Shown: positions 1 through 15,102 of the stretch, one piece after another
Position numbering within the stretch: the first letter of the stretch is position 1
Layout of the letters: each line of letters begins with the position of its first letter
Assembly (NCBI GenBank): GCA_964439175.1
Contig: CAYTNQ010000100.1
Span: 1-16,000, forward strand
DNA from: an uncultured Anaerolineales bacterium
GTDB taxonomy: Bacteria; Chloroflexota; Anaerolineae; 4572-78; NAK82
Reading direction: 5' to 3'
DNA length: 16,000 bases
Position numbers and translations under genes: made by a program
The notes under the pieces: model-generated
The model's input: only the letters and a program-made list of their open reading frames with translations
Database searches by the model: none
Told to the model about the DNA's origin: nothing

Positions 1-145
1 CGTCGTCCCAAGATGCCGACATGCTCCTAATCCCACGGGCCACCCTGTTTTCCTTGCTTGAAGTGGCCTGTTACTCAACCTAAATTGGACAAAGTCCAGT
101 AATATATATCATCCTGTGTTCCAGAAAGGATAGCCGCACCTGCTT

Positions 146-3100
146 CTACGACCTCGAGACAGGCAACCTGACAAGCATCATCGTGCCGTCAGCTCCTGTC
201 TTTTCTATTGAAATTTCTCCTGCATACTTTTGCAACAGGAGACCGGTCAGCCACAACCCCAACCCAGAGCCCTCTCCAGGCCTCCTGGAAGGCACTGGCT
301 TGATGAAGAGCTTATCCCGTATGTTGGCTGGGATACCGGGGCCGGTATCCTGGATTTCCACTTCAAGCCGGTCGTCAACACGCCGGCTAACGATAGTCAG
401 GTTACCTCCATCGGGACTCATCGCTTTGTAACTGTTTTCGATCAGGTTGCGGAATATCTCGGTGATTTGCCCCAGAGAAGCCTGGATCAACGGCAGAGAG
501 TCGTCCAAGTTATAGGCGACCTTGACTGCCCCAAACCCGGCTCTGTCCTGATATTGCCCCCAAATCTGAGCCTGGGCCTCGCGCAGACTGGCGTTGATGT
601 CAACGGCTTGAACTTCAGTTTCCTTGAGCGGTTCCTGAATGCGGGCGATGTAATCCGAGGTGTACTGCGTGTTACGCTCGATGATGTCGAGGATTTCCTG
701 GATGGTCTCATTCGACGTGTCCACGCGCTTGCGCAGCCGGGTGACGTTGGGCACGATGATGTTGAGAGTGTTGTTGATGCGGTGCTGGATGGCGGCCGTA
801 ACCGTGCCCAGGGCAGCTAACTGCCTGGCGGCAATCAGTTCTTCACGCGTTGCTGCGTATAGATTTGCATTGTCCAGGGCAATGGCGGCCTGGCTGGCCA
901 TGGAGGAGAGGACCTGCAAATCTTGCTCGTCGTAAGCATGCTCTCGCTCCCAATCATAGATGGCGAGGACACCTATTACTCTCTCGGCAACTACCATCGG
1001 GACCGCAAGATGAGAAGCGGAAACTTCACCAACATACTCTCGATGGCCTGGTTCGTTATACCATGCCAGCGCTTCCGCGTGGGTTTTGTGCAAGATTGGT
1101 TTTCGAGTCAAGATGACTTCTTCTGTCTTCCCTCTCTTCGCTTTATCGATCTTGCGCGGTGCGAAACCCTTCTGCTGCTCAACATCTACACGCCTGCCTC
1201 TCTCCATCACCAGCCTGAAGGTAATAGTATCAGTTTTTTCATCGTACAAGGCAATGTAAATGTTCTGTGTACCGGTTAGTCTACGCGCTTGCCCGTAGAT
1301 TAACTTCAGGATTTCATCTTCCTTCAAACGAATGCCGGAGGTCAAGGTTTGCCCCACTTCGTTCAAGGCGCTGAGCGCATAAACACGCCGCTCAAGGTCC
1401 TGGTAGAGCCGCGCATTTTCGATGGCGATGGCCATCTGGTTGGCTATGGTTATTAACAGGTTGCGGTCATCATTATCGAATACGCAGGGCTGATCAAAGT
1501 TCTGTAATCCGATGGCACCGATGATTCTATCCTTAAAGAGGGCTGGCACCAATAAACAACATTTTACATCCTGGCGGAAAGCCTTTTCAACCTCATCTTC
1601 CCCCACAGCCCAAGCCTCAAAATCCTCGACAAGTAAGGGCTCCCTGTGGCGAATCACCCATTCGGTCAGGCCCCGACGCGTGCCAAAAGGTCGCGGGGCA
1701 TAAGGGCGACCCTCGACTTTAACCTCGTCGTCAATAAGCTGCCCCCTTTCGTAAACTAGCGGAAACCGGATAACGCCAGTATCATCTTCATAAAGAGCAA
1801 TGAACATGCTGCTGGTATCCATCAGCCCTGACATTTTTTCATATACTTGTCCGAGCTGGGCCTGAACCGGAAGAACGCTGCTGATTGCCCGCTGAAATTC
1901 GGCGACGGCCTGCAATGTGTCTTGTTGCCGGCGCAAGTTTATCGCAATTCCCAAATCCAGCGCCAGTGTCTCTAACATCTCCAGATTGTGCTGGGTAAAG
2001 CCGCCGACCTCATCTTTATCCGCAGAAATAACGCCAACGATCTCGTTCTCGATCTTGATGGGGGCTAAAATGATGGAGCGCAAGGCAGAGCGAGGTACGA
2101 CTTTGCCTGCTGTGAAGCGATCGTCGCTGGCAGCATCGTTTACCAATATTGACTCGCCAGTTTTAGCAACAGTGCCGGCTAAACCTTCGCCTGGCTTGAA
2201 ACGCCCGACTTCAGATACACCGTGAAGTGAGCCAATCCTCTCCATAGCCACTAATTCGCCCACTCTTTTATCCAGAATAAAAATAGTACTGTGACTACAA
2301 TTCAGAGTCCGTACAGCAGATTGAACAGCCACCTGGTATATCTGCTCCAGCACGGGCTGTTTAGCCAGGTTATTGGCTACATCATGGAGTATTTGGAAAT
2401 CGTTTAGCAGTGCCTGCGATTGCTGCCGCTGTTCCTGTTCTAACTGAAAGAGTCTGGCATTTCGAATGGCAACGGCAGCCTGGGCTGCAAAGGACTCGAT
2501 GACGTCCTTTTGCTCCGGGCCAAAGAACTGGGGCGTGCGATAGTTCACAAACATCACGCCCACAGTTTCACCGACTACCCTTAGCGGGATAATAGCAGAA
2601 GAAGCAACCTTCTCGCGCACCACAAATCGCTCATCCGGAGCATCATCATGGGGGATATCAAAATCTCTTGTCAACAACGAAGCCGCCCGTGCGTCGTGGA
2701 AGTACTGAGACTCCCCCATCTTTACCGCCGCCACCACTACATCGTCGTCGTATATCTTGGTCGGTATCAAATGAAGATGCAATCTCTCACCCATAAGTGT
2801 AGGCGGCAAGGCGAACTCATTGCGAGCCTGAATATACTGGTACAGATCTACTATATCAGCGTCCAGAACTTCTTGTGCGCTGTGCGCTATGTCCTCTAAC
2901 ACGCTATCCAGTGTCTGAGTTGGGTCTTCGATGGCAACCAACGATTGCCCAACCGCCTTCAACCTGGCAACCGCTTCTGCACGCATATCTGCCAATCGGT
3001 AACTCCACGAATTCGAGATAGCCATAGCAGCCTGCTGGCCGATCAGGTGGATAATCCGCTTTTCATCTTCGGAGAAAGAGTGTGGCTGCCTGTAATCAAC

Positions 3101-3538
3101 GTATAGGATTCCCAGGATGTTGTCGCCCACCCTTAGAGACAGCCCCATAAAGGCCTGGATGCCTTCTCGAGCGATGAAAGAACTCTCTTTTAGCATTTGA
3201 GGCTCTTCCCGTTCGATGTCCTCGCGGACGACCTCACCCTCTCGATGAACGCGCGCAGATAGCCGCCTCTTCTTATCGGCTTTTTCCTCGACCGGCAGAT
3301 CGTGGAGCAAGCCGCAGGCAGCGACGTTTTCCACGTCGTAGAATTCGCCAAAAGCGGGATGATAGGGATAAATTACCGCACAGTCAGCCCCGGTCATGTT
3401 ACACACGACTTCAACCAACAACTGATATACTTTCTTTGGCCTCTCAGCAATATGTCGTTGGGCCGCTTGTCCAATGGACAGGATCTGATCAAGAATCTCA
3501 GCTTGTTTCTCTTGTGATCCAAGGATGGAGCTATGCAT
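146..3538 (-). CDS. Large cytoplasmic multi-GAF sensor histidine kinase (HisKA_2-type H-box plus HATPase_c), no receiver domain
   Basis: 1130-aa ORF. C-terminus has HATPase_c motifs (EIQDTGPGIP, GSGLGLWL G-boxes). Preceding H-box AAIQHRINNTLNII resembles the HisKA_2/HWE-type dimerisation-phosphoacceptor region. The N-terminal ~850 aa consists of repeated GAF-like modules, about five. No hydrophobic TM segments seen. GGAGG Shine-Dalgarno at 3546-3550 (minus strand), 7 nt before the ATG at 3538. Confidence 0.85.
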   Translation of the reverse strand: MHSSILGSQEKQAEILDQILSIGQAAQRHIAERPKKVYQLLVEVVCNMTGADCAVIYPYHPAFGEFYDVENVAACGLLHDLPVEEKADKKRRLSARVHREGEVVREDIEREEPQMLKESSFIAREGIQAFMGLSLRVGDNILGILYVDYRQPHSFSEDEKRIIHLIGQQAAMAISNSWSYRLADMRAEAVARLKAVGQSLVAIEDPTQTLDSVLEDIAHSAQEVLDADIVDLYQYIQARNEFALPPTLMGERLHLHLIPTKIYDDDVVVAAVKMGESQYFHDARAASLLTRDFDIPHDDAPDERFVVREKVASSAIIPLRVVGETVGVMFVNYRTPQFFGPEQKDVIESFAAQAAVAIRNARLFQLEQEQRQQSQALLNDFQILHDVANNLAKQPVLEQIYQVAVQSAVRTLNCSHSTIFILDKRVGELVAMERIGSLHGVSEVGRFKPGEGLAGTVAKTGESILVNDAASDDRFTAGKVVPRSALRSIILAPIKIENEIVGVISADKDEVGGFTQHNLEMLETLALDLGIAINLRRQQDTLQAVAEFQRAISSVLPVQAQLGQVYEKMSGLMDTSSMFIALYEDDTGVIRFPLVYERGQLIDDEVKVEGRPYAPRPFGTRRGLTEWVIRHREPLLVEDFEAWAVGEDEVEKAFRQDVKCCLLVPALFKDRIIGAIGLQNFDQPCVFDNDDRNLLITIANQMAIAIENARLYQDLERRVYALSALNEVGQTLTSGIRLKEDEILKLIYGQARRLTGTQNIYIALYDEKTDTITFRLVMERGRRVDVEQQKGFAPRKIDKAKRGKTEEVILTRKPILHKTHAEALAWYNEPGHREYVGEVSASHLAVPMVVAERVIGVLAIYDWEREHAYDEQDLQVLSSMASQAAIALDNANLYAATREELIAARQLAALGTVTAAIQHRINNTLNIIVPNVTRLRKRVDTSNETIQEILDIIERNTQYTSDYIARIQEPLKETEVQAVDINASLREAQAQIWGQYQDRAGFGAVKVAYNLDDSLPLIQASLGQITEIFRNLIENSYKAMSPDGGNLTIVSRRVDDRLEVEIQDTGPGIPANIRDKLFIKPVPSRRPGEGSGLGLWLTGLLLQKYAGEISIEKTGADGTMMLVRLPVSRS

Positions 3539-3628
3539 ACTTCACTACCTCCGCGCCAACCATATCAACTGGTTGTGATTGCAGATCCAGGCGTCCACGA
3601 GTTGAACGCAGTGATACCGGCAAATCTG

Positions 3629-5014
3629 TCAGCGACTGGCAGCGTTCGGCGCGAGCACCGTGCAGCGCCACTGCTCAACCGCCTTCCGATACTCGTGTTC
3701 CCTGAACTCTAATCCCTTGTGGGCCAGAGAAACTCTTAACAAGGGAACGGGAATGCCAAACTGTTTAACTAGCCTGACGAGGTCTTTTCCTTCCAGCGTG
3801 CAGCCATCGTTTCTGGCGAGAAGCCGGTCAAGTTGGCGGTAGCCACGAGACAAAGTGCGGTCGAAGGCCTGAGCCTCCGCTTCTATGTATGCCAAAAGTC
3901 TGTCACGTCCACGGCCAAGATTTGGATGCCGTTTCCCATCCAGAACGATTTCGTGGTCAATGAGAGCCGGCAAGCAGCCAAGCGGATCAATCTGCAAGAT
4001 TCGCATCTGGGCCAATACCCTGCGAATCAGGATCCTCATCAGGCGTCTTCGTCCACCTTTTCCAGGCGGAGGTGCGCCGTCGGCAGCCAGGAATACCAAC
4101 GCCCTTAAGTGGTCTACCAGGATACGCTCGCTCTCTCTGGCATTGAAGGCGACTTCTACGTTCCAGTGGGAGTAGAAAGACCTCAAATCTTCAATGAGCG
4201 GTCGTACCGTCTCAATTTCAAAAACCGTCGGCTGACTCTCCAAGATCATTGCCACCCGTTCAGTGCCAATGACCGTTTCAGTAAAGGGATCTGCCATCAA
4301 AGACAGAGCGTCGGTCTCGGCATCTATCTCGGCAAAAATGAAGAGTGAATTGGCGAATTCGACAAACCGTCCACATTTACACCCAGGGCGACAATCAGGT
4401 CTACAACTCAGTTGAGAGCCACGGTCAAAGAACAACTCCGTATTTGGTCCACATTTTCGACTGGTTTCCTGGCCGTCAATCCCTCCGCCCTGCTTCCAGA
4501 AGTTGTGATCTGCCCCCAAGCCAACGACACGATCTTCAGGTAAGCCGAGGTCCCGCCAAGCTTGATAGGTTTCAAGGTCCTGGTTAAAGCGATGTCCCGA
4601 AATTTTCCCGCCAGCGAAGTAGGTTGCCCATAGGCGACTTGAGTCAATCTGCAGATCACGCGTCAAAAATTCCCACATACGTCGTATGGCGATTCGTCTA
4701 GTGTTGTGGCCGAATGAGAAAGCGCCGGGCATCTCAAACAAGCTGAGGTGGAGGTCACTCTTGCCGATTCTGTCCACGTCAAAGTGCCTGAAGCAGTTTT
4801 GTACCATCACGTAGTCATCATCGGGAGATCGACTCCCGAGTTGATCGATGGCGGTCTCGACCTCGGCCAGGCCAGCGCTCATGACAAACGTCATCGGGAT
4901 AGAAGGATGCAGCAGTGAGGTGCCCGGCAACTGCTTGAAGCCCAGGCTTTGATAGTAACGAACAAACCGGTCGCTGATTGCTTGTGGGTGCATAGGTTGG
5001 TCAGCTTTAAGCAC
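3629..5014 (-). CDS. Stand-alone alanyl-tRNA synthetase N-terminal-fragment paralog (class II catalytic core plus tRNA-recognition domain; no editing or C-Ala domains)
   Basis: The 461-aa ORF aligns with AlaRS along the whole catalytic fragment. [14 protein letters not shown] matches [25 protein letters not shown]...[11 protein letters not shown] matches QRCVRAGGKHND...FFEMLGNFSFGDYF. NFWKQGG...[10 protein letters not shown] matches [35 protein letters not shown] matches [28 protein letters not shown] matches [29 protein letters not shown]...[13 protein letters not shown] matches ADHIRACAFLIADG...RGYVLRRIIRRAV. It ends at the position equivalent to about residue 461 of E. coli AlaRS. The GTG start at 5014 overlaps the stop of the upstream SPFH gene by 8 nt; an alternative ATG lies at 4993. 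Confidence 0.8.
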   Translation of the reverse strand: [461 protein letters not shown]

Positions 5015-6020
5015 TCAATCGTTGGTTGTGTTCCCTGCGCGGCACACGCTTCAAAATGGCGAGATCGTCCTTGGTCAGAGGTCGGGATGGTCCAGGGGGA
5101 AGGTCGCTACGAGTTTCTGGACGCGCAGGTTGGCGTTCTGCGGCTGTATCTCGTTTCTTCGCCTTCGGTCTGGTGATGACGTTTGGCCCCTCCCCATCTC
5201 TGGCCATCTCGAACTCGACCTCAGACTCGGTATCTGCATCGTGCTCCAGGAGCAGGCGCTGGACTTTACCCGCGTCCACACCTTCAATGGAAGCCAACAT
5301 TTGAGCCAGCACGGCGTTGGACACGCCAGGAAAGCGCTGGCGCAAGCTATCCACATAGTTCGTCAGCCATTCGCTATCGATCTCCCTACCCCGACGACGT
5401 TTAATAGCTTCCACCACTTCATTTGATAAATTTCGCCCGGTCAGCACGATAGAGTGGGCAGGGTTTAAGATAACCCCCACTGAAGGCAATGTCTGCTCCA
5501 GTTCACGCTTAACCCCTTCAAGGAGCTGGCGGTAACGAGGCCCCCCAGGCGCTAAGGCTATAACGCCATCCATCGACGTAGCCTTAGGTGGCAACGGCAT
5601 GCGTTTTTGTAAATCTGAAATCTGGTTAACCAACGCCTCACGCATTTTTACCTCAACCTGGCGGTGACGCTCCCCCTCCCTGATTTGTACAAGCCTGGCC
5701 AACTTATCCCGGTCGCCCCCGGCTGCCTGCACCGGGTCAAAGCTACACCACAGGTTAAGTGTCAGTTCGTTGGGCACACCAAAGGCAAAGAGTCCAGGTA
5801 CAGTGACCTCGATGGGATGATCCCGTACTTCGACAGTTCGGACGACTCGCTCCAGTCCGGGGATTACCAGCACCAGGCCTGGACCCACTACACGCCGAAA
5901 ACGCCCAAGCCGATAGATCACCAGGCGCTCTTCATGAGGGACCACGCGCAGCGTAGCTCTGAGCACAATCGCGATGAGTATTACCAGCAAGACAACTCCG
6001 ACGATCAACAGGATTTCCAT
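5007..6020 (-). CDS. SPFH/band-7 (stomatin/prohibitin/HflK-like) membrane protein with N-terminal TM anchor and charged, probably disordered C-terminal tail
   Basis: N-terminal hydrophobic helix (EILLIVGVVLLVILIAIVL). Then VVPHEERLVIYRLGRFRRVVGPGLVLVIPGLERVVRTVEVR, which matches the SPFH consensus (vVpegeravvfrfGk..rvlgPGlhfiiPfidrv.kvdlr). The ORF-table start at 6026 is a TTG; the ATG at 6020 is preceded by AAGGAG (8-nt spacer). That Shine-Dalgarno overlaps the TAA stop of the upstream NTPase gene. Confidence 0.75.
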   Translation of the reverse strand: MEILLIVGVVLLVILIAIVLRATLRVVPHEERLVIYRLGRFRRVVGPGLVLVIPGLERVVRTVEVRDHPIEVTVPGLFAFGVPNELTLNLWCSFDPVQAAGGDRDKLARLVQIREGERHRQVEVKMREALVNQISDLQKRMPLPPKATSMDGVIALAPGGPRYRQLLEGVKRELEQTLPSVGVILNPAHSIVLTGRNLSNEVVEAIKRRRGREIDSEWLTNYVDSLRQRFPGVSNAVLAQMLASIEGVDAGKVQRLLLEHDADTESEVEFEMARDGEGPNVITRPKAKKRDTAAERQPARPETRSDLPPGPSRPLTKDDLAILKRVPRREHNQRLSA

Positions 6021-6032
6021 ATGCAAAACTCC

Positions 6033-7049
6033 TTATCCTTCATAGGTGCTCAGAAATTGAGCAAAGAGAGGGCTGAACCAGGTAGTGGGGGCTGACAGCA
6101 AACCGCGGCGGACCAAATGATCTATCGTATCTTGATGGTCTGGTGTATGCTGGCCTCGCGCCGCCAGCAAAGCTACCTCTTGCTCCTGCTCATGCAAACT
6201 CAGCAAAATCCGCCGGCATTCCTGCTGAACGTCAGGCTTGGCTGCAAAGTAGGTCAGTGGATCAGCACCCGACACCCCCTCGTTGACCCAGGTGTTAAAA
6301 ACAATCTTAAGCAACTGAGCATGGCCACCAGCAAGTGCGCGAATTTGGGTAAGCTCTTTGTTGTTAAGAGGTTTACCGGCGACTTCATTCAAGTGCATCA
6401 ACATTTGGCGTGCATCATCCGGAGTGTATGGCTCCAGAGCGTAGATATTGTGGCGAAATAGATCGTAAAACTTCGATCCGTTTTCCATATGATGGCTTTG
6501 TCCCAAAATGTGGGGCAGACGCTTAGTAAAGACCAGATAACTCAGCGCCTCGCGATTGCCTTCACTCCGCAGACCGTTCAATCGCTCCAGCATCGCCAGC
6601 GGTCCCGTCTGGAACACCGCATCGAAATCGTCTAAGACAAACATAACTTTGTGTTTGAGCTCCTGGCAAACCCATCCCAGCCGCGCCCGCAGCGTGCTCA
6701 ATGCACGTTCTTCTTCAGAAATGGGGATTATCTTATTGTCGTCTGGGATTGGGGCAAGTTCCTTCGTCGCTTGGTTCAGCGCATCCAGCATCATCTTCCA
6801 CAGGCTAATGGGATCACCCGGCCAATGTGTTGCGTCCACAATAGGAAAGTGCATACGCTCTACATTTTGCTCAATGTGTTGGGCATTGCGCTGAATATCG
6901 CGCAGGAAGTTGACGAGATTAGATTTGCCAATACCAGCGACACCGACAAAACCCAGAGACTCCCCGCGCAATGCGAAGCGAATGATCAAATTGATTTCAT
7001 CTGCGCGATACGTAGGCTGATAGCGAGGTGAGATTATGTTACGTGTCAT
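6033..7049 (-). CDS. AAA+/P-loop NTPase with C-terminal winged-helix-like region (Orc1/Cdc6- or STAND-like ATPase)
   Basis: Walker A GVAGIGKS (GxxGxGKS). Walker B VMFVLDDFD. Sensor-like LVFTKR. C-terminal DHLVRRGLL helix-turn-helix-like segment. Start is ambiguous: ATG at 7049 (MTRNIISPRY...) or TTG at 7124 as in the ORF table; neither has a strong Shine-Dalgarno. The stop is translationally coupled to the SPFH gene. Confidence 0.7.
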   Translation of the reverse strand: MTRNIISPRYQPTYRADEINLIIRFALRGESLGFVGVAGIGKSNLVNFLRDIQRNAQHIEQNVERMHFPIVDATHWPGDPISLWKMMLDALNQATKELAPIPDDNKIIPISEEERALSTLRARLGWVCQELKHKVMFVLDDFDAVFQTGPLAMLERLNGLRSEGNREALSYLVFTKRLPHILGQSHHMENGSKFYDLFRHNIYALEPYTPDDARQMLMHLNEVAGKPLNNKELTQIRALAGGHAQLLKIVFNTWVNEGVSGADPLTYFAAKPDVQQECRRILLSLHEQEQEVALLAARGQHTPDHQDTIDHLVRRGLLSAPTTWFSPLFAQFLSTYEG

Positions 7050-7167
7050 CTGAAACTTGTCCCATTCGACTATATGAAAGATGACCTTGTGAAGGGAGAG
7101 AGGAAGACAGAAGCTGACCCACAACGGATTGCTCGGGCTTGCGCTGTTTTATGTTATCATAAGTTAG

Positions 7168-7194
7168 ATTACAATATAATCACCCCATTGTCAA
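7168..7194 (-). promoter_or_regulatory. Candidate sigma70-like promoter for the NTPase-SPFH-AlaRS-like operon
   Basis: On the minus strand: TTGACA (7194..7189), 15-nt spacer, TGTAAT (7173..7168). It sits in the AT-rich 211-bp divergent intergenic region. The plus strand of the same region has a TATAAT at 7175-7180 that could serve ybaK. Confidence 0.3.
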
Positions 7195-7245
7195 GAACGA
7201 ATTTCAAGTCGTGGGGCGTTTCAAAGGGAGCAAATAGGAGGGAGT

Positions 7246-7332
7246 ATGGCTCAACTGAAAAAACTGGTTTGTGCAAAAGCCCGAAAAGCTTATAATCGTG
7301 AGTTACGAAAATCCATTGATGCTGGCCGCTGA
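7246..7332 (+). CDS. Hypothetical 28-codon small basic ORF (MAQLKKLVCAKARKAYNRELRKSIDAGR), possible leader or small protein upstream of ybaK
   Basis: ATG at 7246 is preceded by AGGAGGGAG (Shine-Dalgarno, about 4-5 nt spacer). It is in the same frame as ybaK. TGA at 7330-7332 is followed by 3 nt and then the ybaK ATG. The product is rich in Lys and Arg. It is below the ORF-track length cutoff. Confidence 0.3.
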   Translation: MAQLKKLVCAKARKAYNRELRKSIDAGR

Positions 7333-7335
7333 TCT

Positions 7336-7824
7336 ATGAGTAACGACAAGACAAACGCCATGCGCGTCCTGGATGCGCGCAAAATCCCGTATCAAGTTTT
7401 CACCTTTTCGCCCGACATCCACTCGGCCGCTGGCGTGGCTGAGGCCATCGGACTGCCACCCCGGCAAGTTTACAAAACCCTGGTGGTGCTGCGTTCCCAG
7501 GGAAAGCCGATGTTGATTATGGTCGCCGGCGACCGAGAGCTGGATCTGAAACGGGTAGCCAAGGCAGTAGGCGAGAAGAAAGTGCGCATGGCTTCGCACA
7601 AAGAGGCGGAAGCGCTGACCGGCCTGCAGGTGGGAGGTATTTCGGCGTTGGCGCTCCTCAATCGCCCATTCGAGGTGTTCATCGACCGTCCCGCCACTGA
7701 ACTGTCCCACCTGTTGGTCAGCGCCGGCAAACGGGGAATCAACCTGCGGCTGGCCGTCCCAGACCTCATCCGCGTCACCCGTGCCCACATCATCGAGGCG
7801 ACCGAACAAGCCGAACATTCCTGA
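7336..7824 (+). CDS. ybaK: YbaK/ProX-family aminoacyl-tRNA trans-editing deacylase (Cys-tRNA(Pro) deacylase-like)
   Basis: 162 aa. N-terminus TNAMRVLDARKIPYQVFTF matches E. coli YbaK TPAVKLLEKNKISFQIHTY. PPRQVYKTLVV matches the conserved (R)VFKTLV motif. Length matches stand-alone YbaK (about 159 aa). Confidence 0.85.
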   Translation: MSNDKTNAMRVLDARKIPYQVFTFSPDIHSAAGVAEAIGLPPRQVYKTLVVLRSQGKPMLIMVAGDRELDLKRVAKAVGEKKVRMASHKEAEALTGLQVGGISALALLNRPFEVFIDRPATELSHLLVSAGKRGINLRLAVPDLIRVTRAHIIEATEQAEHS

Positions 7825-9361
7825 TTTGGAAATCGTCCCAGGCAAATTCATCGTGTTGCAAGTCCGGTGCCAGACGGGCGGCAGTGACGGTTAATTCGTT
7901 GTAGCCGGGCCGCAAGGCCGAGACCGGTACGTCACGACGCACGGTCAACCAGCGACGGGCGAAATCTTCCATTGGCAGGTCAGGCGACAGGGCCACATCG
8001 TTAACCACCAGACTGGCCCCGATCTCGTTCTGTTGCATCAATTCCAATACCAACACCCAATCGGAGGTCCCAGGGTCGCGCAGGTAAAAGCCGCCAGTCC
8101 AGGCGATACTTGGCTTGTGCCCCGCAAAGAGAGGCCACCACGGCGACAGGAGGTCGCTGTCGCCCAGGTGCACTACCGCGTCCGGCGCCAGTATCGGCAC
8201 CACCCCGACCTCAGCCCCAGTTGCAAACTGCTCAGAGTGATCGCCACCTTTTGCCTCCAGCCCCCTGCCCCTGGCCCCCAACTTCTTGCTCCCCTCCGCC
8301 TGGCGCCACATCTCATATGCTGGCCGGGGATCCCCTGTCGAGTCAATCAGGCTATAGCCTCCAAAAGGATCTCCTGGCTCTGGCTGCGACAGATTCCACA
8401 CCGTCACCAATTCCACCCAGGGCCATTCGCGGCGGACGCGGTCCAAGGCACCAGTCAGATACGCTCCCTGCTGCGCCAGGCTCACACCGAGGCCCGGCTG
8501 ATCGGGCGGCGCGTCCACTGTCCAACCCATCTCAGTAATCCACACCGGCTTATCGCCATCGCCCTGTTCGAGCATAATGGCCCGCAGATCCTCGAGGCGA
8601 GCAAAAACCAGCCCGTCGTTGGCACTTTCTGGCGCGTCAGGAGGCAGTCCGAAGCCATACGGGTGTGCGCCCAGCACGTCGAAGTAAGGAGCAGCGCCCG
8701 CCTGATACATGCCCCGCAAAAAGATGCGTTCATCCATGGCACGCTCGCCATCGCCGTTGGTCGGGGCCAGGCCCGCCGCAATCACCAGCGCGTCGGGGTC
8801 ACCCGCCTTCACTGCCTGGTAGCCAGCGCGTAACAACTGCACATAAGCAGCCGGATCGGGCGCATGGCCACCCCACTCCAGCGCCAGGTTGGGCTCATTC
8901 CAGATGATATAGGCTCGGATGCGACCCCGGTAGCGCCAGGCAACTCGCTCCACGAAGTGCCGATAGTCTCCCAGCGCCTCAGGCGGTGCGTTGAGCGGTG
9001 GTTGCACATCGCTGACCCAGGGCGGATGCTGGTCGAGGCGCACCACCAAATCCAGGCCATAATATTCGGCGCCAGCGACTACCTGGTCAGTCACTTCCCA
9101 GTGGAACTGGCCCCGGGTGGGCTCGATCTCGCGCCAGGCAAAGACCTGCACCACGGTGTCAAACCCGGCTGCCCGCGCCAGCGCCAACGAACGGTCATCG
9201 GCGCGTAAGGTGTGGGCTGCCAGTCGCAGCCCTCGCTCCCCCGACCGCCGGGACAGCATGTCGATTGGGTCAGGTGAGGTGCGAGTGCACCCAGTTCCGA
9301 TCAGCAGCCAGGCAAACGCCAACAGAATAAGGGAGGCGATAGTGTGTACCAAACGCTGCAT
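7790..9361 (-). CDS. Secreted clan GH-A (GH5-like) glycoside hydrolase, probable lipoprotein, with extra C-terminal domain
   Basis: N-terminal signal peptide ending LLIGTGC (lipobox-like). FAWREIEPTRGQFHW and IIWNEPN (acid/base Glu in the NEP motif). WITEMGW (nucleophile Glu in the TE motif). The last ~150 aa have no recognisable domain. Its 3' end overlaps the ybaK 3' end by 35 nt (convergent). Confidence 0.75.
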   Translation of the reverse strand: MQRLVHTIASLILLAFAWLLIGTGCTRTSPDPIDMLSRRSGERGLRLAAHTLRADDRSLALARAAGFDTVVQVFAWREIEPTRGQFHWEVTDQVVAGAEYYGLDLVVRLDQHPPWVSDVQPPLNAPPEALGDYRHFVERVAWRYRGRIRAYIIWNEPNLALEWGGHAPDPAAYVQLLRAGYQAVKAGDPDALVIAAGLAPTNGDGERAMDERIFLRGMYQAGAAPYFDVLGAHPYGFGLPPDAPESANDGLVFARLEDLRAIMLEQGDGDKPVWITEMGWTVDAPPDQPGLGVSLAQQGAYLTGALDRVRREWPWVELVTVWNLSQPEPGDPFGGYSLIDSTGDPRPAYEMWRQAEGSKKLGARGRGLEAKGGDHSEQFATGAEVGVVPILAPDAVVHLGDSDLLSPWWPLFAGHKPSIAWTGGFYLRDPGTSDWVLVLELMQQNEIGASLVVNDVALSPDLPMEDFARRWLTVRRDVPVSALRPGYNELTVTAARLAPDLQHDEFAWDDFQIRNVRLVRSPR

Positions 9362-9396
9362 CAGAATCCCCTTACGCTATACGGCATACAAAGTAC

Positions 9397-9473
9397 TGCG
9401 TATTGCGCGCTTCGCGTGCGTATTGCGTGTTGCGTAGTGGATATTGCGTCCGGGATGCTGAGTGCGCGCAATA
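9397..9473. repeat. TATTGCG direct repeats (9401, 9421, 9442; about 20-bp spacing) plus inverted copy CGCAATA (9467-9473) upstream of the glycosidase gene
   Basis: Read directly from the sequence: TGCGTATTGCG at 9397-9407 and 9417-9427, TATTGCG at 9442-9448, and CGCAATA at 9467-9473. They lie in the 127-bp region between the glycosidase start (9361) and the oxidase stop (9489). Confidence 0.35.
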
Positions 9474-9488
9474 GGCAGGTTCCAAGAT

Positions 9489-11108
9489 TCACGGAAATAC
9501 CAGCTTGCCCGGATTCATCACACCTTCGGGGTCGAAAGTTCGGCACAGGCTGCGCAGGGCTGCCATACCCACTTTCCCCTTTTCGGCCGGCAGGTAGGAG
9601 GTGTGGTCGACGCCCACGCCATGTTGGTGGCTGATGGTACCGCCGGCGGCGACGATGACATCGCTGGCGGCGGCCTTGAGAAGACGCCAGCGCCGCAGGG
9701 TCTCGCCGGGGTCTATGCCGTGCGGGCTGGAGTCAGCCAGAGGCAGTCGAAAGAGGTAGGTGACGTAGATGCTGGCACCGTCGGTGTAAATGTGAGACAA
9801 ATGGGCGAAGACATGGACACGCTCCCCAACCTCCTTTAGCCCATCCCGCAGGGCGCGCCGTATGGCATCCGCTGTGGGGAAAACGTCTAACCAGCGGACG
9901 GCAGTCTCCAGTGTATCCACAGCGTAGCCTCGCTCCCAGAGCGTGTTGCGCAGGTAGGGAGTGCGAAAGCGGCTCTTGCGCCACTCTTCCCCCAACTTAC
10001 GTCCCACACAGACACCGCCGTAAGCGCGGGCGACTTCCATCACCTGCTTGCGGGTTGCTTTCACTGCGTCGTCACACCCAGTGATACCAACAAAAAGTAT
10101 ACACCTGTTCGGACCCAGTCCACGCAGACGCAGCAGCCGCTCCAACAAGCTCACCAGCCCTTCGTGGCCGGCCAGGGCCAGGGTGGTGGTCGTCTCGACA
10201 GTGTCGCTCAGGCGCAACATTGAAAGAGGCAGCCGGGCCTGAGCCATCTCGCGGACGGCAGCCACACCCTGCGCCCAAACCGGGAAGAAGATGGCGTGGA
10301 ACTCCTCCCGTTCGGGCAGCGGGCTGACCCGCAGAGTGGCCTGGGTGATGATCCCCAGCCGCCCCTCGGAGCCAAGCACAAGCTGCCGCAGGTCAGGCCC
10401 CGCGGCACTGGCAGGGAAAGGTGGCAGATTCAGCCGCCCCATGGGCGAGAGCAGCCGTCCGCCTGCGAACAACTCTTCAATGCGTCCATAATACAGGGAT
10501 TGCTGTCCACTGGAGCGGGTGGCGATCCAGCCGCCTAGCGTAGAGAGCTCAAAGGATTGGGGAAAGTGCCCCAAGGTATAGCCTCGCGCCCGCAGACTTG
10601 CCTCCAGGCGTGGACCGTCTACCCCGGCACCAAAAGTCGCGAGCCGGCTCACCTCGTCGAGGGCAAACCGGCGGTTGATGCGGCCCATATCCATGGTGAG
10701 AACCGGGGCATGGCCTGGAGACGGATTTACGTGACCCACGACGCTCGTCCCGCCGCCATAAGGAATGAGGTGGGCACCAACCCTGGCAGCGAATGTGATA
10801 AGTTGCGCTACCTCTTCCTCAGATGAAGGGAAGGCAATGCCATCCGGGAAGGCCGGAATATGCCCACTCCGAATAGCAACCCAGTCAGGTAGACTCTGGC
10901 CGCAAGCGTGGCACAAGCGCGCTTCGGCGTCAGTGGTTACCAGCGGATAGGCAGGCAGGCGACCGCGAGGGACGGCGCGAAGCACTTGGGCTAACGCGGC
11001 GTCTTGCGGCGGCGTCGCTGGGCCGAGAACCTCCTCCAGAAAGCGAAGCGCCGAGGGAGAAAGGGGATACGCAACGGCCTGGTCACCCCATCCATTCCAA
11101 CGTCGCAT
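9489..11108 (-). CDS. FAD-linked oxidase, alkyldihydroxyacetonephosphate synthase (AGPS)-like (FAD_binding_4 plus C-terminal oxidase domain)
   Basis: N-terminal RRWNGWGD motif characteristic of AGPS-like enzymes. PYGGGTSVVG FAD-binding segment. C-terminal HQHGVG typical of vanillyl-alcohol-oxidase-family FAD oxidases. ATG at 11108 (TTG at 11111 in the ORF track) is preceded by GGAGG at 11118..11114 with a 5-nt spacer. Confidence 0.8.
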   Translation of the reverse strand: MRRWNGWGDQAVAYPLSPSALRFLEEVLGPATPPQDAALAQVLRAVPRGRLPAYPLVTTDAEARLCHACGQSLPDWVAIRSGHIPAFPDGIAFPSSEEEVAQLITFAARVGAHLIPYGGGTSVVGHVNPSPGHAPVLTMDMGRINRRFALDEVSRLATFGAGVDGPRLEASLRARGYTLGHFPQSFELSTLGGWIATRSSGQQSLYYGRIEELFAGGRLLSPMGRLNLPPFPASAAGPDLRQLVLGSEGRLGIITQATLRVSPLPEREEFHAIFFPVWAQGVAAVREMAQARLPLSMLRLSDTVETTTTLALAGHEGLVSLLERLLRLRGLGPNRCILFVGITGCDDAVKATRKQVMEVARAYGGVCVGRKLGEEWRKSRFRTPYLRNTLWERGYAVDTLETAVRWLDVFPTADAIRRALRDGLKEVGERVHVFAHLSHIYTDGASIYVTYLFRLPLADSSPHGIDPGETLRRWRLLKAAASDVIVAAGGTISHQHGVGVDHTSYLPAEKGKVGMAALRSLCRTFDPEGVMNPGKLVFP

Positions 11109-11136
11109 CAACGCCTCCGGTTTCTTCGTGACCGAA

Positions 11137-11255
11137 TTATCCCAAAACGATTTGGGATAATTTTGGATAAATTATAGAGATATTCTAAGAATCGGCGACC
11201 AACTTGGCATAAATTTGGGATAAACTTGGGATAACTTTGGGATAACTTTGGGAAT
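11137..11255. promoter_or_regulatory. Array of TTGGGATAA-type 9-mers with strict 11-bp periodicity plus a perfect 10/4/10 palindrome, in the oxidase promoter region; candidate operator or iteron array
   Basis: Palindrome TTATCCCAAA-acga-TTTGGGATAA at 11137-11160. Direct copies start at 11152, 11163 (TTTGGATAA), 11204 (TTGGCATAA), 11215, 11226, 11237 and 11248 (TTGGGAAT). Every offset within a cluster is exactly 11 bp. A TATAAT sits on the minus strand at 11176..11171 between the two clusters. GANTC sites at 11189-11193 and 11252-11256. Confidence 0.6.
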
Positions 11256-11271
11256 CTCAGACGTGATTGGC

Positions 11272-12645
11272 TTATTTCAGTATGTAATACGTGCCCCGTT
11301 TGTCGCCCACTTTGAGCAGCAAGCCTTTGTCTACCAGATCGGCCAAGTCGAGGCGCAAGGTCTCGGGGGAGACGTTGGGGCAGATGGTGCGGTAGTCGCG
11401 GTTTGTGATGCGCCCGAACTCACGCACGTGAGCCAGCGCCCGCATCTGGCGCTCGTTCATATTCTGCTCCCATGGTGGGGATGGGCGCCGTTCGCGCACA
11501 TTGCGGAGGGTAACGCTGAAAGAGTAAGGCGTGGCTTTGAAATCGGGTGGCGGGTGGCCGCGCTGCAACATCTCTTCGATCATGCGATCGATGCCCAACC
11601 CCAACTCCTCAATGTAGCCCCACTGAAAGAGGCCAGCCACGATGCGGGGATTGCGCGAAAAGTGCTCTTCGACGATGTTATCTACCGTGATATAGCCGGG
11701 TAGGCCGCCGGGGCTGATCACTTCCAGCCGATCTTCGAACATGCGGATCTCCACGCGCCGGCCGGAGAGGCGGTAATCCCGATGGGCGATGGCGTTTACC
11801 AGCGCTTCGCGTACGGCGAAGCTGGGATATTCAGGTTGCTCCTCCCGCTGAAGGCCGACTACCACGGCCCCTACGCGCATCTCTTCCCAAACGATGTTCC
11901 ACGCTGATTCCAGCAAGCGAGCTAACGGTCCTTCCAATTCGGCGCGCCGGCCATATCCGGCCAAACCATCCTTGCCACGCGGCTCGCTGCCCACAAAGCG
12001 CACGAAGACAATGCCGCTCTGGGATATGAACTCCTGCGGGCACTTGCCGAAGAGAAGTAAACCCGAAACGGTGGGCGTGCCGTCCGGGGTTAAGGCACCG
12101 ATACTGATTAAGTGATCGTCCACTGTGCCGCTAACCGGACGCCGTCCTCGCTCTGCCCGCTTCTCCAGATATTCTTCAATGACGGCGTCGTCCATATCGG
12201 TGCGGCGCGCGCCGCCGACTGGCTCCGCCTCGAAGTCGCCACTGGACTTGGTGGCAGCGAGCTGGCGGATAGCGTCGCCCCCCAGCGGCCGGTTCCCGGG
12301 ACCGTGGCGGATGAGCACCCGGCCATCGGCTAGGCTATGTAATTCCGGGCTGCGGGCCACACTGATGTGCACTACGGTGCCCTGGGGCAATTCGGCCTGC
12401 CCCCATTCGGTAGCGACGGGAGGACGGCACAATCCAAGAGCTTGCTGAAGAAGCCCTTCCACATCCTCGTCCAGCACATCGCCGGTCACTTGCCCCTCCG
12501 GCGTGATACCAATCAGAATGGTGCCACCATCGGCGTTGGCGAAGGCGACCAATGTCTCGGCCAGCCCCTCCACCTCAGGATCCGGCAAAAAGGCGGTGGT
12601 TTGATTCGGCCCGCGAGCTAGCAAATTAGAAAGGTGAGTTCGCAT
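11272..12645 (-). CDS. AlbA_2 (Schlafen-like divergent AAA) plus HATPase_c_4 plus C-terminal winged-HTH putative transcriptional regulator (often misannotated as a RecG-like helicase)
   Basis: N-terminal LAETLVAFANADGGTILIGI (AlbA_2 signature). REALVNAIAHRDY (HATPase_c_4 signature). C-terminal ITNRDYRTICPNVSPETLRLDLADLVDKGLL winged helix. Confidence 0.85.
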   Translation of the reverse strand: MRTHLSNLLARGPNQTTAFLPDPEVEGLAETLVAFANADGGTILIGITPEGQVTGDVLDEDVEGLLQQALGLCRPPVATEWGQAELPQGTVVHISVARSPELHSLADGRVLIRHGPGNRPLGGDAIRQLAATKSSGDFEAEPVGGARRTDMDDAVIEEYLEKRAERGRRPVSGTVDDHLISIGALTPDGTPTVSGLLLFGKCPQEFISQSGIVFVRFVGSEPRGKDGLAGYGRRAELEGPLARLLESAWNIVWEEMRVGAVVVGLQREEQPEYPSFAVREALVNAIAHRDYRLSGRRVEIRMFEDRLEVISPGGLPGYITVDNIVEEHFSRNPRIVAGLFQWGYIEELGLGIDRMIEEMLQRGHPPPDFKATPYSFSVTLRNVRERRPSPPWEQNMNERQMRALAHVREFGRITNRDYRTICPNVSPETLRLDLADLVDKGLLLKVGDKRGTYYILK

Positions 12646-12761
12646 CCTATCTCACTGCACCTAGACTCTACAAGAGGACTAATCAACTTCTCCAACCATT
12701 CTACTTCATCACATCTTCTTTTCCAAAATTTGAACAAATACCAAGTCCTCCCAAACGTAGC

Positions 12762-13865
<1,104 letters not shown>

Positions 13866-13907
13866 TTACACCGGCCCTTGTTCTACAATCTACCCCCCCT
13901 GACTAAG

Positions 13908-15071
13908 CTAAATCTGATCCCAAAAACCTAGCTGGTGAGAGGGGCGGTGACCATTGAGCAAAATGAAGGGAGCAGTCCGGCCCGCGACGGCGCCCAAGGC
14001 ACGCAAGTCAGACAGGTTCTGCAGGTGACCCTGGCGGCGCGCACGCAAAATGGCGTCAGCGCTGCGCGGACCAATGCCCGGCACGCGCAATAACTCCCTG
14101 CGGCTGGCCCGGTTGATTTCTAACGGCTGCTCCGCCAGGTGCTGGCGCGCCCAGGCCAGCTTGGGGTCGACGCCAACCGGCAGCAGGCCCCGGTGGTCGA
14201 AAGGGAGTTCGTCCAGGGTGAAGCCGTAGAAACGCAGGAGCCAGTCAGCCTGGTAGAGGTGGTGTTGGCGGATGGGAGGCGTGCGATCAGCACCGGCCAG
14301 TGGCGTGTCGGGCACAGGGTTGAAGCCAGAGTAGTAGGCACGGGCTAATTTCACCTGGCGGTAGAGTTGGTCGGCAGCCATCAGTAGCTCGCGGTCGCTC
14401 TCGCCCGCCGGGCCGACGACGAATTGCGTCGTCAGGCTAGGTGTTTTGGCCAGCAGCCCTTGTGCCCTGGGAATCTCGTAAGCCCAGCGCATGGCCTGCA
14501 GCAACTCCCCGGCAAAGTCCTTTTGCGGGGCCAGGCGGGCCAACCTGGCCGCGTTCGCGCCTTCCAGGTTAATGGATACCCGGTCGGCCAGGCGAAGCGC
14601 ATGCTCTACCTGCGACCGTTCGGCCCCCGGCATGATCTTCAAATGGACGTAGCCGCGATATGCGTATTTACGCCGGATCAACTCGACGCTGGCCAACATC
14701 GGATCCATGGTTTTGGTCCCGCCACCAACGACCCCGCTGCTGAGAAACAGCCCTGTGACGACCCCCGCCTGCTGCATACGGTCGAATTCGCGGGCCAGTT
14801 CGTCGGGGCTCAAACGGACGCGGACGGTGCTGCCCCGCCCCGCCCGAAAGGGACAGTAGTGACAGTTCCGCTCGCAAGCGCTGGTCTGCATGGTGCGCAG
14901 CACGGTCATCGGACCGTCCGGCCGCTGAACCTGATAGAGAGACCTGTCCAGAAAATCGCGCTTGGCTTGTTGGCGAGGCGTCAGCATCGGTTCGCCATCA
15001 CACTCAAGCCTGCTCTCATGGGCCAGCAGTTGCAGCTTCTGTTGAGCGTCAGGTGTGATAAGCGTGTGCAT
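13908..15071 (-). CDS. Radical SAM protein with C-terminal helix-hairpin-helix (putative DNA modification/repair radical SAM family)
   Basis: CxxxCxxC motif (CERNCHYCPF) about 65 aa from the N-terminus. C-terminal LRVPGIGPRSADAIL HhH motif. Length 387 aa. Confidence 0.7.
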   Translation of the reverse strand: MHTLITPDAQQKLQLLAHESRLECDGEPMLTPRQQAKRDFLDRSLYQVQRPDGPMTVLRTMQTSACERNCHYCPFRAGRGSTVRVRLSPDELAREFDRMQQAGVVTGLFLSSGVVGGGTKTMDPMLASVELIRRKYAYRGYVHLKIMPGAERSQVEHALRLADRVSINLEGANAARLARLAPQKDFAGELLQAMRWAYEIPRAQGLLAKTPSLTTQFVVGPAGESDRELLMAADQLYRQVKLARAYYSGFNPVPDTPLAGADRTPPIRQHHLYQADWLLRFYGFTLDELPFDHRGLLPVGVDPKLAWARQHLAEQPLEINRASRRELLRVPGIGPRSADAILRARRQGHLQNLSDLRALGAVAGRTAPFILLNGHRPSHQLGFWDQI

Positions 15072-15102
15072 ACTCCTATTATACGAACGTTTGTTCGGTA
15101 CG

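Follow-up and report, generated by a model that had tools for sequence, protein, structure and literature searches.

The minus strand of a 16,000-nucleotide (nt) stretch of contig CAYTNQ010000100.1 (assembly GCA_964439175.1), which belongs to an uncultured Anaerolineales bacterium in the phylum Chloroflexota and is referred to here as the window, encodes a protein with the two N-terminal domains of alanyl-tRNA synthetase (AlaRS) and, immediately downstream of it, a large histidine kinase. A first-pass annotation of the DNA had read the AlaRS-like gene as a minimal, editing-less synthetase that charges tRNAAla with alanine or a mis-activated amino acid, or else uses a different acceptor. The residues conserved among its relatives and the genes that accompany them suggest a role in signal transduction. 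The two genes in question are the following:

3629-4993, minus strand: AlaRS-like protein of 454 residues, ATG start at 4993, aminoacylation and tRNA-recognition domains only (translation checked)
146-3538, minus strand: cytoplasmic histidine kinase of 1130 residues with five GAF domains (Pfam), the H-box AAIQHRINN (His919), and a HATPase_c domain (4.2e-16)

Fold and extent of the AlaRS-like protein

The open reading frame (ORF) of the AlaRS-like protein is intact and spans positions 3629-5014 on the minus strand if an upstream GTG is included, which is the extent that had originally been given to the gene. The frame is real, but its start codon is the ATG at position 4993, which is shared by a database twin with an identical protein sequence (P0001) and by all homologues, and not the GTG at 5014, which overlaps the stop codon of the upstream gene. 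Residue numbers in the following refer to the 454-residue protein unless the numbering of Escherichia coli AlaRS is named.

The protein matches the Pfam family tRNA-synt_2c (PF01411) with an E value of 8.8e-65 over profile positions 2-423 of 552. Its sequence matches in the PDB are exclusively catalytic fragments of AlaRS (Methylomonas 9JC7/9JDN, E. coli 3HXU, Aquifex aeolicus 1RIQ, and human 4XEM; E ~1e-39) and cover residues 7-432 of the E. coli enzyme. The protein thus ends where the editing domain would begin, which bears out the earlier assignment of its extent to the minimal catalytic fragment; also the catalytic motifs and the DHLRAL..DG..RRR..R motif of the tRNA-recognition domain are present as described. 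A structural model computed with AlphaFold2, with a 52-sequence alignment of the family as input, reached a mean predicted local distance difference test (pLDDT) score of 89 and a predicted template modelling (TM) score of 0.88, and Foldseek placed it on fragments of the AlaRS441/453 type with TM scores of 0.75-0.81. The AlaRS-like protein has the aminoacylation and tRNA-recognition fold of AlaRS. Kinship with the alpha subunit of glycyl-tRNA synthetase was rejected, because its Foldseek match (E ~1e-7, TM ~0.3) falls far below those of AlaRS; other class II cores were far weaker too. The score of the protein against the alaS equivalog model TIGR00344 is only 215 bits, as compared to a cut-off of 457 bits, and that against NF002436 is 182 bits, as compared to a cut-off of 529 bits.

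The AlaRS-like family and its substrate sites

More than 500 relatives of 440-470 residues were recovered in a word-indexed search, chiefly from metagenome-assembled genomes of Chloroflexota, and a profile search of 1.84 billion representative proteins ranked about 55 clusters of the family (at 50% identity) ahead of the canonical AlaRS of 880 residues. In a neighbour-joining tree, 45 sequences of the family, which carry Glu in place of the Asp that binds the amino acid, and 84 canonical sequences with Asp are separated by one clean bipartition, and the mean distance between family and canonical sequences (1.77) exceeds those within the family (1.29) and among the canonical enzymes (0.92). The separate bipartition, the residues that are invariant in the family (see below), and the low score against the alaS model agree with the earlier view that the gene is a divergent paralog rather than a recent truncation of alaS; the neighbour-joining phylogeny of AlaRS catalytic domains places the family in a distinct deep clade.

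The relatives are rare and unevenly distributed. When 185,579 species, each represented by a single genome, were scanned with three exact peptide patterns, relatives turned up at about 90 places, which is a lower bound. On the side of the Chloroflexota, the hits fall among Anaerolineae, Caldilineaceae, Thermoflexia, and Promineifilaceae; elsewhere, they belong to Phormidium, Spirulina, Leptolyngbyaceae, Candidatus Moduliflexus, Thiothrix, Thiofilum, Thiolinea, and Saprospiraceae, with minor contributions by some Desulfobacterales and Methylococcaceae and a few bacteria of the candidate phyla radiation (CPR). The family is thus mostly concentrated in filamentous bacteria, to which most of the carrier taxa belong. 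No relative was found on the viral contigs of IMG/VR, and a phage origin of the family was rejected on these grounds.

Differences from canonical AlaRS were mapped in an alignment of 110 family members with the enzymes of E. coli, A. aeolicus, and Methylomonas; a second alignment, of 150 representatives from the profile search, gave the same picture. The relevant segments of the window protein are listed below, with substitutions and the residues that read the G3:U70 base pair of tRNAAla in E. coli numbering:

4868-4906, minus strand (residues 30-42): family-invariant counterpart of the canonical motif DPTLLFTNAGM
4712-4801, minus strand (residues 65-94): motif 2 region QNCFR-HFD...FEMPGAFSF, as aligned to the E. 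coli, A. aeolicus, and Methylomonas enzymes
4586-4615, minus strand (residues 127-136): family-specific insertion of 10 residues, family consensus YFaGg...gh.f.
4373-4405, minus strand (residues 197-207): Cys cluster CX3CX3CXC (C197, C201, C205, and C207)
4343-4360, minus strand (residues 212-217): EFANSL, with E209 and N212 retained, W211 replaced by Ala or variable, and V214 replaced by Leu
4256-4288, minus strand (residues 236-246): motif 3 region with D235E and G237V; motif-3 Arg retained
4043-4081, minus strand (residues 305-317): segment with PGK for PSN, replacing DGVMPSNE-NRGY; the G3:U70 reader Asn303 becomes Gly
3764-3766, minus strand: K410, at the position of the G3:U70 reader Asp400; YDTYG becomes VKQFG

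Six residues of the active site are retained in all 110 members, namely R69, M88 (in FEMPG; E. coli M92), W166 (E. coli W170), E212, N215, and R246. Among the seven positions of the alanine pocket (R69, M92, W170, N212, V214, D235, and G237 in E. coli), four are kept and three are changed (V214L, D235E, and G237V), and the replacements are as firmly fixed as the retained residues: L217, E239, and V241 each occur in 110/110 sequences. The position of L229 in E. coli (L219 in Methylomonas), just upstream of motif 3, is occupied by Met in 68 and by Leu in 39 of the 110 members; the residue of the window protein is M233. In the motif-2 loop, R69 is retained and AGGK (E. coli residues 70-73, including K73) is deleted, and a second family-specific insertion comprises 7 residues. 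The segment that reads the G3:U70 pair is altered just as consistently. Where canonical representatives have P-S-N, G311 is found in 108 and K312 in 104 of the 110 members, and the position of Asp400, which is Asp in canonical AlaRS, carries Lys in 109.

The signature L217/E239/V241/PGK/K410 cleanly separates the family from canonical AlaRS with V/D/G/PSN/D. The invariant residues of the family concentrate in what used to be the active-site motifs and the G:U-reading segment, a pattern that speaks against a decayed, non-functional protein; judged by this conservation, the former substrate sites are repurposed and under selection in a new state. Several of these differences had already been noted in the first-pass annotation. 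The replacement of FTNAGM by FVMSAGL was confirmed and is invariant in the family (columns P33, M34, F36, V37, S39, A40, G41, and L42), and the change in VDTGMGLER corresponds to D235E and G237V in three independent alignments, each substitution being present in 110/110 sequences. The list was incomplete, however, as it lacked the deletion of AGGK, the substitutions V214L and L229M, the replacements of Asn303 by Gly and of Asp400 by Lys, and the two insertions. The family can be regarded as a natural experiment in the repurposing of both the AlaRS pocket and the surface that reads the G3:U70 pair.

The most conserved motif of the family, residues 30-42, is also the only internal region where the confidence of the structural model is low, with a mean pLDDT of ~53 for residues 31-40 and values below 50 for residues 34-37. 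In view of the model, this segment may be a loop that requires a ligand or partner to become ordered.

The Cys cluster had been regarded as an insertion, possibly a metal site, that distinguishes the paralog from canonical AlaRS. It is indeed real and near-invariant (C201, C205, and C207 without exception and C197 in more than 90% of the family), but the loop that carries it has the same length as residues 186-205 of the E. coli enzyme and is therefore no insertion. All four Cys are found in 56 of 63 domains of the family and likewise in 64 of 87 canonical domains from the best-scoring full-length AlaRS representatives, so that a paralog-specific innovation was rejected. Many canonical bacterial AlaRS of ~880 residues (P0182, P0192, and P0199; from Firmicutes, Wallbacteria, and others) carry a CX4CX3CXC cluster ahead of the RYIEIWN motif, for example GCGnPDCKPGCDCERF in one AlaRS from Firmicutes; the AlaRS of E. 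coli and A. aeolicus lack the four-Cys cluster. By its sequence pattern, the cluster is probably a metal site inherited from a canonical AlaRS of the Cys-cluster type. No discussion of a Cys cluster in the catalytic domain of canonical AlaRS was found in the literature searched.

The changes in the pocket bear directly on the question of whether the protein can still charge tRNAAla. In the AlaRS of Methylomonas, Val204 (V214 in E. coli) lies 3.4 Å from the methyl group of alanine; the substitution V204L reduces the activity with alanine, and its combination with L219M (L229 in E. coli) abolishes the activities with Ala, Ser, and Gly (PMC12143591; published in 2025). The window protein has both residues of this double mutant, Leu at the position of V214 and Met at that of L229. 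Since V214L, L229M, D235E, and G237V each add bulk to a minimal pocket, the normal AlaRS reaction is strongly argued against. On the tRNA side, more than 95% of AlaRS have the Asn and Asp that read the G3:U70 pair, and the replacement of Asp400 by Ala or Asn (D400A, D400N) costs about 25-fold in kcat/Km (PMC6055181). The loss of the readers alone is not decisive, because a mini-AlaRS of Tupanvirus (TuAlaRS; 461 residues) that lacks both the Asn and the Asp still charges tRNAAla (PMC10036535). With both readers replaced, the K73 loop deleted, and V214L paired with L229M, the earlier proposal that the fragment suffices to charge tRNAAla and G3:U70 minihelices is not supported.

A split AlaRS was rejected as well: no gene for an editing (tRNA_SAD) or C-Ala (DHHA1) domain is adjacent to the AlaRS-like gene in the window or at any related locus examined. 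The earlier reading had singled out a split partner together with a conserved alanine pocket as the finding that would speak for an ordinary AlaRS; such a partner is not adjacent, and the pocket is not conserved. There is no tRNA gene in the window, and tRNA genes occur at only 5 of 60 related loci and are of assorted identity, which indicates the absence of a dedicated tRNA partner; a search of the window for T-box or other RNA leaders yielded no Rfam match. A role as a spare enzyme of translation is improbable for the AlaRS-like protein. Given that alaS is essential and the family rare, the carrier genomes presumably also encode a full-length alaS.

Operons and fusions with multi-GAF histidine kinases

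The feature that best explains the gene was missed when it was read as a minimal AlaRS, namely that the gene shares a conserved operon with a multi-GAF histidine kinase and is occasionally fused to it. In the window, the kinase gene comes next on the same strand, and 90 nt separate its start from the preceding stop codon of the AlaRS-like gene. All five annotated homologue loci (5/5) show the same order: after the AlaRS-like gene come those for a multi-GAF histidine kinase (1027-1783 residues), two small receiver proteins, and fusions of receivers with effector domains. The effectors comprise a TCAD9/APH-like kinase, a CHAT (caspase-like) protease, Schlafen/AlbA_2, and HD-CE/EAD7, and some of the five loci also encode a Trypco1 or an nSTAND1-HATPase protein. 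The receiver genes that would be expected downstream of the kinase of the window would lie past the left end of the window.

The same arrangement prevails in the species genomes, where ORFs were called and labelled by BLAST against the proteins of the annotated homologue loci. A GAF protein is encoded by the immediate next gene on the same strand at 53 of 60 loci with at least 1.5 kb of downstream DNA, to which Pfam added one more (54/60). The two genes are separated by a median of ~35 nt, with overlaps of 4 nt in several cases; at three more loci, the kinase is located a few ORFs away. Of the 48 loci that have 6 kb or more of downstream DNA, 43 encode receiver proteins farther on.

In several relatives, the two proteins are joined or the AlaRS-like domain is duplicated:

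P0150, 1718 residues: AlaRS-like domain, four GAF stretches, and HATPase_c
P0132 (1488 residues) and P0133 (1448 residues): two AlaRS-like domains, GAF, and HATPase_c
P0131, 910 residues: two AlaRS-like domains
L052/P0151: AlaRS-like domain and five GAF stretches

The kinase fusions arose independently, and every fused AlaRS-like domain has kept the signature of the family. An assembly error is argued against by the presence of P0150 on six contigs from different sequencing runs, in the same operon with genes for two receiver (REC) proteins, a REC-APH/TCAD9 protein, and a REC-CHAT protein. The N terminus of histidine kinases is the usual position of sensory input, and this is the place occupied by the AlaRS-like domain in the fusions. 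Together, the conserved operon and the fusions indicate that the AlaRS-like protein probably works with the GAF kinase.

Some loci depart from the common pattern. On the contig that encodes P0132 (JGI 3300075153), a receiver protein of 278 residues and a protein of 699 residues with a PNP_UDP_1 domain (nucleoside phosphorylase superfamily) replace the CHAT and TCAD9 effectors. Tandem AlaRS-like modules occur in neighbouring genes or within one polypeptide (L058, L060, P0131, P0132, and P0133); both copies keep the signature, and they may form a pseudo-dimer that matches the dimeric kinase. Two members from CPR bacteria, a Saccharibacterium (L079, positions 10001-11218) and a Roizmanbacterium (L082, positions 7305-8537), are only 405-410 residues long and have no GAF kinase as neighbour, but share the derived signature of the family (the deletion of AGGK, the E-T-V pocket, and PxPGxxGR); the gene in L079 is located between those for ribosomal protein L25 and HrcA/GrpE. 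At a locus from Verrucomicrobia (L083, positions 5439-8556), a distant AlaRS-like protein (31% identity, 397 residues) is directly followed by a protein with an adenylation and a carrier domain that resembles nonribosomal peptide synthetases (NRPS). This context points to natural-product chemistry, and the protein is perhaps closer to enzymes of the AcmF type (see below). An entry in a review of cyanobacterial orthocaspases (PMC7475262) could represent a direct fusion of a caspase related to the AlaRS-like system or a spurious domain hit.

In the window, the AlaRS-like gene is preceded by two further genes on the same strand, and four genes farther away are apparently unrelated:

5007-6020, minus strand: SPFH/Band 7 protein (Pfam Band_7, 1.5e-8) with an N-terminal hydrophobic helix (membrane-anchored)
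6033-7049, minus strand: P-loop ATPase of ~340 residues with weak matches to AAA_22 and AAA_16, start codon confirmed; first gene of the low-GC block, with a G+C content at third codon positions of 0.555 as compared to 0.65-0.75 in flanking genes
11272-12645, minus strand: Schlafen/AlbA_2 protein with HATPase_c_4; flanking, apparently unrelated
12762-13859, minus strand: CcrM-like N6-adenine methyltransferase with a C-terminal RAMA domain; flanking, apparently unrelated
13908-15071, minus strand: radical SAM protein of the UDG-linked DNA modification/repair type, with helix-hairpin-helix motifs; flanking, apparently unrelated
15103-15906, minus strand: RsmA/KsgA, with a model match split in two stretches; flanking, apparently unrelated

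The stop codon of the Band 7 gene is located 13 nt upstream of the ATG of the AlaRS-like gene. The linkage of the Band 7 protein and the ATPase to the AlaRS-like gene is limited to the closest relatives (72-74% identity): orthologues of the Band 7 protein occupy the same place at three loci (L007, L008, and L009) and those of the ATPase at two of them (L008 and L009). Related ATPases occur elsewhere in L022, L032, and L051. The block formed by the ATPase, the Band 7 protein, the AlaRS-like protein, and the GAF kinase differs in base composition (G+C content of 0.50-0.56, and of 0.555-0.582 at third codon positions [GC3]) from the seven genes on the other side of the boundary (0.58-0.65 and 0.645-0.75). 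This compositional island (positions 1-7300 vs. 7300-16000) suggests that the four-gene block was horizontally acquired. The boundary falls in the region where an ORF of 182 residues without family match (7303-7851, minus strand) overlaps by ~60 nt with the gene for a protein of 523 residues with weak matches to glycoside hydrolases (7790-9361, minus strand). The numbers of predicted promoters and terminators in positions 1-7900 were no higher than in shuffled sequence and are uninformative with respect to operon structure.

Proposed function and comparison with known systems

The best explanation of these observations, with a probability of roughly 0.6, is that the protein is a neofunctionalised AlaRS catalytic fragment that serves as the input (sensor) module of a multi-GAF histidine-kinase phosphorelay and does not supply Ala-tRNA. 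The AlaRS-like module would bind a ligand in the remodelled pocket and on the basic helical domain, most likely the acceptor end of a tRNA (charged or uncharged) or a nucleotide of the adenylate type. Binding of the ligand would alter the autophosphorylation of the kinase, and the phosphorelay would then turn on the receiver-fused effectors and thereby elicit a stress response, a response to infection, or a decision on cell fate.

The tRNA-recognition domain is kept in all members of the family and has a net charge of +3.4, as compared to -5.5 in canonical AlaRS. The retention of this basic domain beside a pocket that excludes alanine renders the binding of an RNA acceptor helix plausible, albeit without specificity for the G:U pair. 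It is tempting to go one step further and to envisage a synthetase-derived sensor of tRNA acceptor ends that gates the phosphorelay in response to charging state, damage, or foreign tRNA and would be, by analogy, a bacterial counterpart of the domain of GCN2 that resembles histidyl-tRNA synthetase (HisRS); this narrower version is tentative.

Several observations weigh against a sensory function. The residues R69, M92, W170, E209, N212 (E. coli numbering), and the motif-3 Arg are invariant, so that the binding of ATP and some adenylation could persist and the protein could be an enzyme rather than a pure sensor. The motif-2 loop, which normally contacts the 3' end of the tRNA, is shortened by a deletion, which weakens in particular the version with a tRNA sensor. 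The mutants in the alanine pocket were made in the background of a canonical enzyme, and their effects may not carry over to a co-evolved pocket; as TuAlaRS documents, an enzyme without the Asn and Asp readers can still have a true AlaRS activity (PMC10036535). Finally, the kinase neighbour is missing in a few distant members (two CPR bacteria and one Verrucomicrobium), which implies that the remodelled pocket is not strictly tied to kinase signalling. Judged by its conserved residues, the protein might possibly still act in catalysis, either as the maker of a ligand for the GAF domains or as a transferase similar to AcmF.

The first of these catalytic roles, an ATP-using enzyme that makes a signal to be read by a GAF domain of the kinase, is rather unlikely but deserves consideration. 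Its product might be an acyl- or aminoacyl-adenylate of a non-standard substrate, a dinucleoside polyphosphate, or an aminoacylated metabolite. Such a role would account for the presence of the class II ATP-site residues R69, E212, N215, and R246, together with M88 and W166, in all 110 members and for a pocket that was remodelled to a new invariant state instead of being lost. GAF domains generally bind small molecules or nucleotides (PMC7159879), and both the operon and the fusions would co-locate the maker and the reader of the signal. However, fusion at the N terminus of the kinase, the usual sensor position, requires no catalysis, and a small-molecule product would not explain why the tRNA-recognition domain was kept as a whole and became more basic. 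Moreover, the motif-2 loop, which closes over ATP and the acceptor, is four residues shorter, and no candidate substrate can be named.

It is improbable that the protein is a transferase that binds Ala-tRNA or another aminoacyl-tRNA made by a housekeeping synthetase and transfers the aminoacyl group to a small molecule or to a protein of the relay. The precedent is AcmF, an AlaRS-like protein with the same two domains and the same change from Asp to Glu, in which this Glu holds the amino group of the alanyl moiety (PMC12945691). The preservation of a basic tRNA-recognition domain in the family and the NRPS-like adenylation and carrier protein next to the distant member from Verrucomicrobia are in line with such a function. 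AcmF, however, has lost most of the ATP-site residues and has Gln in place of Asn, whereas the family keeps them all; G237V together with V214L should leave little space for an alanyl side chain, and the conserved neighbours are signalling proteins rather than a biosynthetic cluster.

Hardly any more credible is a guard function, in which a catalytically irrelevant mimic of AlaRS is bound by a phage or toxin factor directed against AlaRS or tRNA and thereby trips the kinase. The effectors (CHAT, TCAD9, EAD7, Trypco1, nSTAND1, and Schlafen-like) are shared with the conflict systems of multicellular bacteria, for which inactive copies of enzymes have been proposed to act as decoys (PMC7159879), and the low-GC3 block of the operon appears to be horizontally acquired. 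A decoy, however, should resemble its model, yet the protein departs from AlaRS in its pocket, its motif-2 loop, and the residues for reading tRNA, and these features show the same fixed state in different phyla instead of diversifying; nor was a family member found on viral contigs. PADLOC found no match for the AlaRS-like protein, the kinase, the Band 7 protein, or the ATPase and only weak, receiver-type hits for the effectors of the homologue loci, and a known defence system was rejected on this basis; PADLOC has no model for the core genes.

The least probable function is the one proposed at the outset, a mini-AlaRS without editing that loads tRNAAla with alanine or, wrongly, with a small non-cognate amino acid: although the protein is coextensive with the classical active fragment and has kept the catalytic Arg and Glu residues, TuAlaRS is functional with the same domain content and without the two readers (PMC10036535), and CPR members of the family reside among housekeeping genes, this is outweighed by the narrowed pocket, in which the V-to-L and L-to-M changes alone abolish the activation of Ala, Ser, and Gly by the Methylomonas enzyme, the deletion of AGGK including K73, a score far below the alaS cut-off, the rarity of the relatives among the species genomes, the nearly constant presence of the gene in a histidine-kinase operon or kinase fusion, and the lack of a linked tRNA gene.

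If the protein is a sensory input module, it would represent a bacterial, AlaRS-derived example that is hard-wired to a two-component relay with caspase-like and related effectors and enriched in filamentous bacteria; if it senses tRNA, the status of translation would be wired directly to programmed decisions on cell fate or to the defence against infection. The family offers a testable entry into the coupling of the state of translation, or of an attack on translation, to the fate of cells in multicellular bacteria. To our knowledge, only few non-translational paralogs of aminoacyl-tRNA synthetases are understood (HisZ, AsnA, PoxA, GluQRS, and AcmF), and the eukaryotic GCN2 is the one well-known case of a synthetase-like domain that controls a protein kinase. 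The literature searched yielded no description of a link between an AlaRS-like protein and a histidine kinase, of AlaRS paralogs in Chloroflexi, or of synthetase-like domains in bacterial kinases. The current labels of the proteins (alanyl-tRNA synthetase at JGI and alanine--tRNA ligase-related protein at NCBI) need to be corrected.

Among known systems, the closest in structure are the catalytic fragments of AlaRS (E. coli AlaRS441/461, A. aeolicus AlaRS453, and Methylomonas AlaRS429; 3HXU, 1RIQ, and 9JC7), which share with the family the two-domain fold, ~25-30% sequence identity, and R69, M92, W170, E209, N212, and the motif-3 Arg; also the four-Cys loop is common to many canonical bacterial AlaRS. 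The family differs by the absence of AGGK70-73, the presence of V214L, D235E, and G237V in all members and of L229M in many, the replacement of Asn303 by Gly and of Asp400 by Lys, the two insertions, and a gene that is linked or fused to a kinase and has no editing or C-Ala domains nearby. TuAlaRS has the same two domains, likewise lacks the Asn and Asp readers, and also has a long C-terminal helix. However, it is a working AlaRS close to the enzyme of its host and has conserved motifs 1-3, whereas the family is a deep and separate bacterial clade with a remodelled pocket and a place in a signalling operon.

The comparison with AcmF from the biosynthesis of ascamycin (PMC12945691), which is based on the published description of that protein, reveals the same restriction to the aminoacylation and tRNA-recognition domains, the same change from Asp to Glu (E239 in the family), and a non-translational role. 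AcmF, however, is encoded in a nucleoside-antibiotic cluster together with AcmD and AcmE, has lost most of the ATP-site residues, and has Gln for Asn, whereas in the family the ATP-site residues and the Asn are preserved, G237V and V214L come in addition, and the genomic link is to a two-component relay. The conflict and apoptosis-like systems of multicellular prokaryotes (Kaur, Burroughs, Iyer, and Aravind 2020; PMC7159879) have CHAT, TCAD9, EAD7, Trypco1, and nSTAND1 and a bias toward filamentous or multicellular bacteria in common with the loci described here; they are built around a MoxR-vWA or GTPase core, whereas a histidine kinase with receivers and an AlaRS-like partner takes this place here. 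AlaRS is not mentioned in Kaur et al. 2020 and 2021. The annotated homologue loci contain no MoxR-vWA or GTPase core domains.

The closest parallels in regulatory logic are derived from HisRS. GCN2 is an eIF2-alpha kinase with a HisRS-like domain that senses tRNA, and HisZ is a HisRS paralog that regulates ATP phosphoribosyltransferase. By analogy, the AlaRS-like family would follow the same principle, in which a non-translational module derived from an aminoacyl-tRNA synthetase regulates another enzyme or senses on its behalf, and some of its members are likewise fused to a kinase. Nevertheless, the parent enzyme is AlaRS instead of HisRS and the partner a histidine kinase with arrays of GAF domains. 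Taken as wholes, these systems are not homologous.

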